From Escherichia coli (lineage in GTDB: Bacteria > Pseudomonadota > Gammaproteobacteria > Enterobacterales > Enterobacteriaceae), in assembly GCF_003018235.1 (NCBI RefSeq), contig NZ_CP027437.1: a stretch of 64,000 bases of DNA. One strand, written 5' to 3'. The position numbers are program-made. Shown here piece after piece: positions 32,801 to 35,800 of the stretch (its first letter is position 1; every line of letters begins with the position of its first letter).

Positions 32801-35800
32801 CTGGACCGTGGTGAAGGTATTCCGTGGGAAGGTAACTACTCCTCCTGGCTGGAGCAGAAAGATCAACGTCTGGCGCAGGAAGCTTCACAAGAAGCTGCGC
32901 GTCGTAAGTCGATTGAGAAAGAGCTGGAGTGGGTACGTCAGGGGACTAAAGGCCGTCAGTCGAAAGGTAAAGCACGTCTGGCGCGTTTTGAAGAGCTGAA
33001 CAGCACCGAATATCAGAAACGTAACGAAACCAACGAACTGTTTATTCCACCGGGACCGCGTCTTGGCGATAAAGTGCTGGAAGTCAACAACCTGCGTAAA
33101 TCCTATGGCGATCGTCTGCTGATTGATGACCTGAGCTTCTCGATCCCGAAAGGAGCGATCGTCGGGATCATCGGTCCGAACGGTGCGGGTAAATCGACCC
33201 TGTTCCGTATGATCTCCGGTCAGGAACAGCCGGACAGCGGCACCATCACTTTAGGTGAAACGGTGAAACTGGCATCGGTTGATCAGTTCCGTGACTCAAT
33301 GGATAACAGCAAAACCGTTTGGGAAGAAGTTTCCGGCGGGCTGGATATCATGAAGATCGGCAACACCGAGATGCCAAGCCGTGCCTACGTTGGCCGCTTT
33401 AACTTTAAAGGGGTTGATCAGGGTAAACGCGTTGGTGAACTCTCCGGCGGTGAGCGCGGTCGTCTGCATCTGGCGAAGCTGCTGCAAGTTGGCGGCAACA
33501 TGCTGCTGCTCGACGAACCGACCAACGACCTGGATATCGAAACCCTGCGTGCGCTGGAAAACGCCCTGCTGGAGTTCCCGGGCTGCGCGATGGTTATCTC
33601 GCACGACCGTTGGTTCCTCGACCGTATCGCCACGCACATCCTGGACTACCAGGATGAAGGTAAAGTTGAGTTCTTCGAAGGTAACTTTACCGAGTACGAA
33701 GAGTACAAGAAACGCACGCTGGGCGCAGACGCGCTGGAGCCGAAGCGTATCAAGTACAAGCGTATTGCGAAGTAATGCGTAAAATACCGGATGCGACGCG
33801 CCAGCATCGCATCCGGTATTAGTTAAATGATTAGTCCCCGGAAAAGGCAGAATTTTCTTTAAGCGTATTAGCTCAGATGCGGACTGACATCTCAAATCAA
33901 GCGGGAACTCATGGTTCCCGCTTAACGTTTTATTCACCGCGCAAAATCTGGCGGAAATGGGAAACCAGCGGACGTTGGTTGGCTTTATGCCAGGCTGCCC
34001 ATAATTGCGTTGAATAATTCATCCACGGCAATTCACGTAATACCACCCCTTCCGGCGCATTATGACGCAGACTATGTTGAATTAAGGCCAGACCTAATCC
34101 CGCAGCGACCAAACCTAATGCCGTGAGGGGTTCACCCGCTTCCAGGCGAATATCAGGATTAAACCCGGCGTTAACACAGGCGGCGACAAAATGATCGCGA
34201 GAATGCGCATCGTCGTTATGAATCACCGCAATCCACTGCTCATCGCCAAGTTGTGACGCGACAAGGTTTTCCTCCTGCGCCAGAGGATGATTTTGCGGTA
34301 AGGCCAACAACATTCGATCATCCAGAACCTGAATATATTCCAGATCCTGCTCGCTGTCGGTGGGCGGCGTATCGACCAGAGAAAAATCGAGACTGCGCTG
34401 GCGCAGGCCTTCAATCTGGGTAGCCGGTGGTTGGCTGTAAAGTGCGATATGCACATTCGGACGCGATACACGTAACGTACGTAGCGCCGTAGAAAGCACA
34501 CCGGAATGCATGGCGTTTTCGATATAGCCAATACACAAGCCACCATCTTCCCCCCGTCCCAGGCGTTTGCCTAACGACTCCAGGCGGTTGGCGTGTGTCA
34601 GCAACGAACGTGTTTCGGCAAGGAATGTCTGTCCATCAGCGGTCAGGCGAATGCGCTGCTGATTACGCTCAAACAGCGTCAGCCCCAGCCGTTCTTCCAG
34701 TTGTGCAATCTGGCGGCTCAGCGGTGATTGCGAGATATGTAATCGCTCGGCTGCGCGTCCCACGTGCTCTTCTTCTGCGACCACCACGAAGTACTTCAGT
34801 TGGCGTAAATCAATCATGTTAGACCTAAAAGGACTTAAGTCAGACGAATTATGTCCTATCAAGTCACAACATCGCAAGGTATTGTGATCCACGTCACAGG
34901 GCGATAGCAAAAAACGCCCTAACCCAAACCGAATAATTGAGGACATCTTATGAGCATCAAAAATTTACTTCCCGGCAAAATTGGCTTAGGCGGCGCACCA
35001 CTCGGCAACATGTTCCGTGCCATTCCGGAAGAAGAGGCTCACGCCACCGTGAGCGAAGCCAGGAACCTAGGTGTGCGTTACTTTGATACCGCGCCGCTGT
35101 ACGGCTCTGGCCTTTCTGAAATCCGCATGGGTGAAGCGCTGTCTCAGTATCCACGCGATGAATACGTTCTGAGTAGCAAAGTCGGTCGCATCATGCTGGA
35201 CGAAATGGAAGATCCGGCAAAACGGGATTTCGGTGAAAAAGGTGGCCTGTTCGAACACGGCCTGAAAAACAAAATTCTGAATGACTACTCTGCTGACGCC
35301 ACGCTGCGCTCGATTGAAGACAGCCTGAAACGCCTGAAAACAGACCGTCTGGACATTGTCTGGATCCACGACCCGGCGCAGGACTTCTACGGTGACAGCT
35401 GGCTGGAGCAGTTCAACATTGCTCGTACCGGTGCGTTTCGTGCACTGACACGTTTGCGTGACGAAGGTGTGATTAAAGCCTGGGGACTAGGTGTGAACCG
35501 CGTCGAACCTTGCGAACTGACGCTGGCGCTGGACGAACCGAAGCCAGATGCTTTCCTGCTGGCGGGCGTTATTCCCTGCTGGATCACGAACGTGCGCTGC
35601 AACGCCTGATGCCAGAAGCACTGGAACAGAACGTAGATATCGTTGTGGGCGGTCCATACAGCTCTGGCGTACTGGCAGGCGGCGAGCACTTTGAATATCA
35701 GAAAGCCTCTGCGGCCATCCAGCAGAAAGTGGCGCAAATTAACGCCATTGCCACACGTTTCAATGTGAACGTTAAAGCAGCTGCGCTGCAGTTCGCGCTG

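Follow-up and report, generated by a model that had tools for sequence, protein, structure and literature searches.

The DNA analysed here, called the window below, is a stretch of 64,000 nucleotides of Escherichia coli (assembly GCF_003018235.1, contig NZ_CP027437.1), and the whole of it is E. coli chromosome. Positions 9101-55681 are colinear with E. coli CFSAN061763 and carry yaaI, thrLABC, arcA, creABCD, slt, ettA, nadR, radA, serB, deoCABD, and prfC. Between ettA and nadR sits an accessory cluster. Of 5426 complete E. coli genomes, 482 (about 9%) have this cluster, in each case on the chromosome, whereas it is absent from K-12. It comprises the genes for a LysR-family regulator, an aldo-keto reductase (AKR), an SDR-family oxidoreductase, an SRPBCC protein, and a small YdgH/BhsA/McbA-like protein (Table 1), AKR being the first structural gene of the LysR/AKR/SDR/SRPBCC oxidoreductase cluster. 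The plus strand shows no terminator-like site between the AKR and SDR genes, and these two are probably co-transcribed.

Table 1. Features of the window, numbered from its first nucleotide
Feature	Position	Strand	Remarks
ettA	32108-33775		Borders the accessory cluster
LysR-family regulator	33930-34817	-	Intact, 295 aa; divergently transcribed from AKR
Aldo-keto reductase (AKR), probable pseudogene	34950-35959	+	1010 nt; intact alleles have 1011 nt (336 codons plus stop)
AKR 5' fragment ORF	34950-35609	+	219 codons, of which 1-206 are native and the last 13 (35568-35606) out of frame; TGA at 35607-35609
AKR native-frame remainder	35567-35959	+	R207-R336 plus TAA, out of frame with the start codon
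AKR 3' ORF as called	ATG at 35609-35611	+	116 aa, starting at native Met221; reported by gene callers; SQP97803.1, "putative Aldo/keto reductase"
Upstream-extended SDR ORF	35877-36776	+	299 codons from ATG at 35877; overlaps the 3' end of AKR
SDR-family oxidoreductase	35979-36776	+	Intact, 265 aa; start 19 nt past the AKR stop
SRPBCC/Polyketide_cyc2 protein	36802-37218	+	Intact, 138 aa
YdgH/BhsA/McbA-like small protein	37376-37588	+	Intact, 70 aa; last intact island gene before nadR
Annotated remnants in relatives	37590-38048		Partial alkene reductase, NadS family, hypothetical protein
nadR	38049-39281		Borders the accessory cluster
Lambdoid prophage remnant, flanks	55729-62314		Adjoins prfC; contains the cdt operon
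cdtA/cdtB/cdtC operon (cytolethal distending toxin)	57173-59315	+	Intact; Pfam CDtoxinA, Exo_endo_phos, CDtoxinA
TipJ-like tail protein	59552-62314	-	In the lambdoid prophage remnant
IS3-family transposase ORF	62776-63822	-	Pfam rve, HTH_21

Two further features of the island concern its gene boundaries and its downstream end. The SDR gene can be extended upstream into the 3' end of AKR, and the resulting 299-aa form appears in some public records; RefSeq gives the 265-aa protein, and the longer form is probably a start-site over-extension. Between the YdgH-like gene and nadR, relatives annotate gene remnants, to which the E. coli O158:H23 strain CFIAFB20140388 adds a GNAT acetyltransferase gene and a fragment of an oxidoreductase gene. 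The ettA-nadR island looks like the decaying remainder of an element that was once larger.

A lambdoid prophage remnant is inserted next to prfC. Its intact cdt operon is about 91% identical to cdt-V loci, and the cdt stretch is 99.9% identical over 7.2 kb to that of strain CFIAFB20140388, the only one of the 5426 complete genomes to cover at least 80% of it. The similarity to the O158:H23 prophage stops at approximately 62.77 kb, where the IS3-family ORF lies, and an IS3-family element probably interrupts the prophage.

Read from the ATG at 34950, frame 0 of the AKR gene runs through PKPDAFLLAG to Gly206 (GGC, 35565-35567), continues as VIPCWITNVRCNA, and ends at TGA. The initial annotation, made from the same DNA, had described FLLAG followed by an early stop 15 codons later; the early stop is there, but the aberrant tail counts 13 codons. 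From the break onwards it is the +2 frame that continues, as had been proposed, reading GRYSLLDHERALQRLMPEALEQ... up to the TAA at 35957-35959. With any base added after 35563, the AKR gene becomes one single ORF of 1011 nt, which yields the 336 codons (plus stop) predicted for the intact gene. Alignment to intact E. coli alleles of AKR showed one G missing from a GGGG run in the window: these alleles read CTG GCG GGG CGT TAT where the window reads CTG GCG GGC GTT AT. The ancestral run spans the codons for Ala205 (GCG) and Gly206 (GGG), and a GGG is left at positions 35564-35566 of the plus strand. The alignment resolves the deletion to this run rather than to one particular G, and position 35564, at which a 1-nt deletion had been placed, lies inside it. 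The frame-0 stop overlaps the ATG of Met221 as TGATG (35607-35611), which is why gene callers report a second ORF.

We determined the ancestral state of the run by comparison with other genomes. A 41-mer carrying the four G's (G4) was matched by all 482 locus-bearing complete E. coli genomes, in 103 cases at 100% and in the others with one or two substitutions, so that GCG GGG CGT stands in each of them in place of the GCG GGC GTT found at 35562-35570 of the window. In contrast, the corresponding 40-mer with three G's (G3), in which every 28-base word spans the deletion, had no match among the 5426 complete E. coli genomes and none in a set holding one genome per GTDB species. The complete RefSeq genome closest to the window is 99.0% identical to it over 24 kb, and none of these genomes belongs to the G3 lineage. 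In every E. coli record with the locus that we inspected, AKR is annotated as an intact "aldo/keto reductase," and homologues at least 90% identical to it, labelled Klebsiella pneumoniae, Klebsiella aerogenes, and Yersinia alsatica, have 336 aa and read AFLLAGRYSLLDH. As the G4 state is present in all 482 locus-bearing genomes, the window has lost one G from a G4 run, most plausibly, we infer, through replication slippage.

Whether this loss is a genuine pseudogene mutation or an assembly error had been left open in the initial annotation, and the data favor the former. Were it an assembly or sequencing error, the true sequence would be GGGG and a homopolymer miscall would have dropped one base from the consensus. 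The lesion does lie in a homopolymer, the typical place for long-read consensus errors, and SQP97803.1 has an ENA-style accession on a 5.01-Mb replicon that may be a long-read assembly. However, by exact-sequence look-up, at least 24 contigs of NCBI and Logan assemblies were found to encode the 219-aa truncated product; Logan provides a separate assembly for each public sequencing run. The product is listed in 26 collection blocks, corresponding to one replicon of 5,012,557 bp and some 25 draft contigs of 20 to 200 kb. These at least 24 are contigs and possibly not all different isolates, and the one compared base by base, from run SRR21461730, matches window positions 28950-41609 at 100.000% over 12,660 bases without a gap, deletion included. 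A run of 3 to 4 G's is, in addition, short for a systematic miscall.

The distribution of indels along the window argues in the same direction. Over 46.6 kb, the window differs from CFSAN061763 by 534 substitutions (1.15%) and four single-base indels, all in homopolymers. Apart from the AKR lesion, these indels are intergenic: near 11331, in the satP-mog terminator hairpin, the window has C5 and CFSAN061763 has C6; at 34908-34914, between LysR and AKR, A6 stands against A7; and at 38004-38010, upstream of nadR, A7 stands against A6. The window states at the last two sites are common to other E. coli genomes (strains MEW and 7/2), indicating that they are ordinary population polymorphisms. Since about 88% of the compared region is coding, random consensus errors would mostly hit genes, yet the other 45 complete CDSs are all unchanged in length and free of internal stops, leaving AKR as the only broken gene among 46. 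A different picture is seen in GCA_900448445.1 (UGAI01000003.1), whose many homopolymer errors at the same locus might speak for an error in the window too. There, around positions 1500-3600, six extra single-base homopolymer insertions within about 700 bases break both LysR and AKR; these breaks are probably uncorrected long-read consensus errors and not real pseudogenes, and the window has no comparable cluster of insertions. Overall, an error in the window is very improbable, and from the sequence comparisons the AKR lesion is very probably a genuine, recent, lineage-specific loss-of-function frameshift pseudogene.

A frameshift in a G tract could also be part of the way a gene is expressed, either through programmed -1 ribosomal frameshifting that restores AKR or through homopolymer phase variation that switches it. 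If the P-site tRNA-Gly slipped back by one base at 35564-35567, from GGC to GGG, the exact native protein would be made, and genes with programmed frameshifts (prfB, +1; dnaX, -1; IS3-family transposases) likewise present two overlapping ORFs of one domain family. Unlike these systems, AKR has neither a slippery site nor a stimulatory structure, nor is its frameshift conserved among orthologues. No X XXY YYZ heptamer occurs in 35477-35609, where both frames are open, and the predicted fold of 35560-35660 has an energy of -29.3 kcal/mol, compared to a mean of -30.8 kcal/mol for shuffled sequences (z = +0.43). The frameshift is present in none of the 482 orthologous loci, showing that this is not a conserved recoding site. 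Tracts of 3 to 4 G's are far below the lengths usually driving slipped-strand phase variation. Moreover, the tract is G3 in the window and G4 in all 482 other genomes, and the identical product on at least 24 contigs makes its length look fixed in the lineage, which also argues against phase variation. We therefore regard programmed recoding or switching of AKR as extremely improbable. Ribosomes may nevertheless slip by -1 at G GGC spontaneously and at a low level, or reinitiate at TGATG.

We then considered what the truncation removes from the enzyme. The assignment of the split gene to the aldo-keto reductases, proposed from the start, was borne out, since each fragment has its own match to Pfam Aldo_ket_red, the 5' piece over profile positions 1-143 and the 3' piece over positions 181-287 of 291, thus indicating that the split is not a chance pattern. 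The repaired 336-aa protein scored 152.5 bits against PF00248 (cut-off, 24), with residues 10-322 covering profile positions 1-287 of 291, and its orthologues are annotated as "aldo/keto reductase" (WP_000023622.1 and others). For none of the AKR, SDR, and SRPBCC proteins did an NCBIfam equivalog score as high as its cut-off; the top one for AKR was YdjG methylglyoxal reductase, with 72 bits where 550 are required. Among solved structures, the nearest are those of plant L-galactose dehydrogenases (8SCC, 7SMI, 7EZI, and 9W6Y), and L-galactose dehydrogenase aligns with the repaired AKR over the motifs FDTxPxYG, S(S/T)KxGR, and xHD (E = 8e-29). The catalytic tetrad consists of D46 (FDTAP), Y51 (LYG), K77 (SSKVG), and H140 (WIHDP); its motifs align with the corresponding ones of 8SCC, and all four residues are located in the 5' fragment.

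Unlike intact members of the superfamily, the AKR of the window is truncated after residue 206 and loses 130 of its 336 native residues. No complete barrel is encoded in one frame, since the frame of the start codon does not cover residues 207-336, to which IPGSS (293-297) belongs. In the aldo-keto reductase family, the final strands of the barrel and a large share of the NAD(P)H-binding site are found in the C-terminal part. By this architecture and the Pfam profile, the 219-aa product would be missing the last third of the (alpha/beta)8 barrel, comprising beta7, beta8, and the conserved IPGSS cofactor-binding region. An AlphaFold2 model built on a shallow alignment of 10 sequences was too poor for reliable strand mapping (mean pLDDT, 54.7; pTM, 0.48); as a rough indication, it places one strand at 201-205, before the break, and the next at 230-233, so that the break may follow beta6. 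With so large a part of the barrel and of the NAD(P)H-binding site missing, the product should be inactive, being presumably unable to fold or to bind NAD(P)H despite its catalytic motifs. The break after Gly206 thus makes the AKR of the window a likely pseudogene of the family rather than a functional member.

The arrangement of the two fragments leads to a further possibility, namely, that AKR is still functional as a split enzyme. Translation would terminate at the TGA and reinitiate at the ATG of 35609-35611, and the 219-aa and 116-aa pieces would form an active two-chain barrel, which, if true, would be a natural split (beta/alpha)8 barrel just after fission. A TGATG stop/start overlap is classic for translational coupling, only native residues 207-220 would be absent, and some (beta/alpha)8 barrels are known to be active when reassembled from fragments. 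However, the sequence before the ATG (GCAACGCC) contains no Shine-Dalgarno-like element, the N-terminal piece carries 13 aberrant residues, and the stretch that would be lost, RYSLLDH[E/K]RALQRL, is invariant save for the one E/K position in homologues 90 to 100% identical. In addition, the overlap came about incidentally through the frameshift and is not conserved, the gene being unsplit in 482 of 482 other genomes. A functional split enzyme is, in our view, highly improbable.

For an AKR pseudogene, the following consequences can be proposed. Translation from the native start would give 219 residues, 206 native and 13 aberrant, and the enzyme activity would be lost along with the missing residues. 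As the premature stop leaves approximately 370 nt untranslated, expression of the SDR and SRPBCC genes downstream might drop through polarity.

We also compared the repaired gene with intact alleles. Relative to the allele of CFSAN061763 it has 14 differences, 13 of them synonymous and one non-synonymous (R38W); downstream of the break, four synonymous and no non-synonymous changes were found, and there was no further lesion. This excess of synonymous changes, together with the lack of secondary decay, indicates that the frameshift is recent. With respect to the O158:H23 allele, there are 29 differences and three changed codons. An ENA metagenome scaffold (L010) encodes the exact amino acid sequence of the repaired AKR, with no non-synonymous change, while its DNA is 98.5% identical to the window over the aligned 10.6 kb that includes AKR. 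At this level of DNA identity the scaffold was rejected as a direct intact ancestor. That the same protein is encoded nevertheless indicates that strong purifying selection has acted on AKR in different E. coli lineages, in that of the window until recently.

A second inactivation of AKR was observed in the Logan assembly of run SRR29730111 (L006, locus at 2341-3351), where the G4 run is intact and codon 189 carries a nonsense mutation, E189* (GAA to TAA). On sequence grounds, E189* represents an independent inactivation in a different E. coli lineage, which implies that AKR is dispensable in some backgrounds. Two independent inactivations also suggest that the AKR/SDR/SRPBCC cluster as a whole is dispensable in some niches. 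Inactivated once by the deletion of a G and once by E189*, AKR offers a small example of accessory-gene decay.

In practical terms, the appropriate annotation for AKR is a pseudogene (frameshifted aldo/keto reductase) and not two "putative aldo/keto reductase" CDSs, and the G3 allele is a clean marker of this E. coli lineage. The density of indels and their location with respect to a relative told a real frameshift from the error-ridden GCA_900448445.1, and this may help as an example of method. Beyond annotation bookkeeping, the lesion matters little. The orthologue accession WP_000023622 gave no hit when the literature was searched in full text, and we found no paper describing the AKR lesion.

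Compared to the lineage-specific frameshift pseudogenes known from Enterobacteriaceae, AKR is alike in every respect considered: a one-base deletion in a homopolymer, intact syntenic orthologues, and no further decay. As in those pseudogenes, the lesion looks fixed within its clone, and the gene has been knocked out elsewhere, here by E189*. The AKR lesion is thus no different in kind from ordinary homopolymer frameshift pseudogenes and constitutes a new instance of a well-known event.
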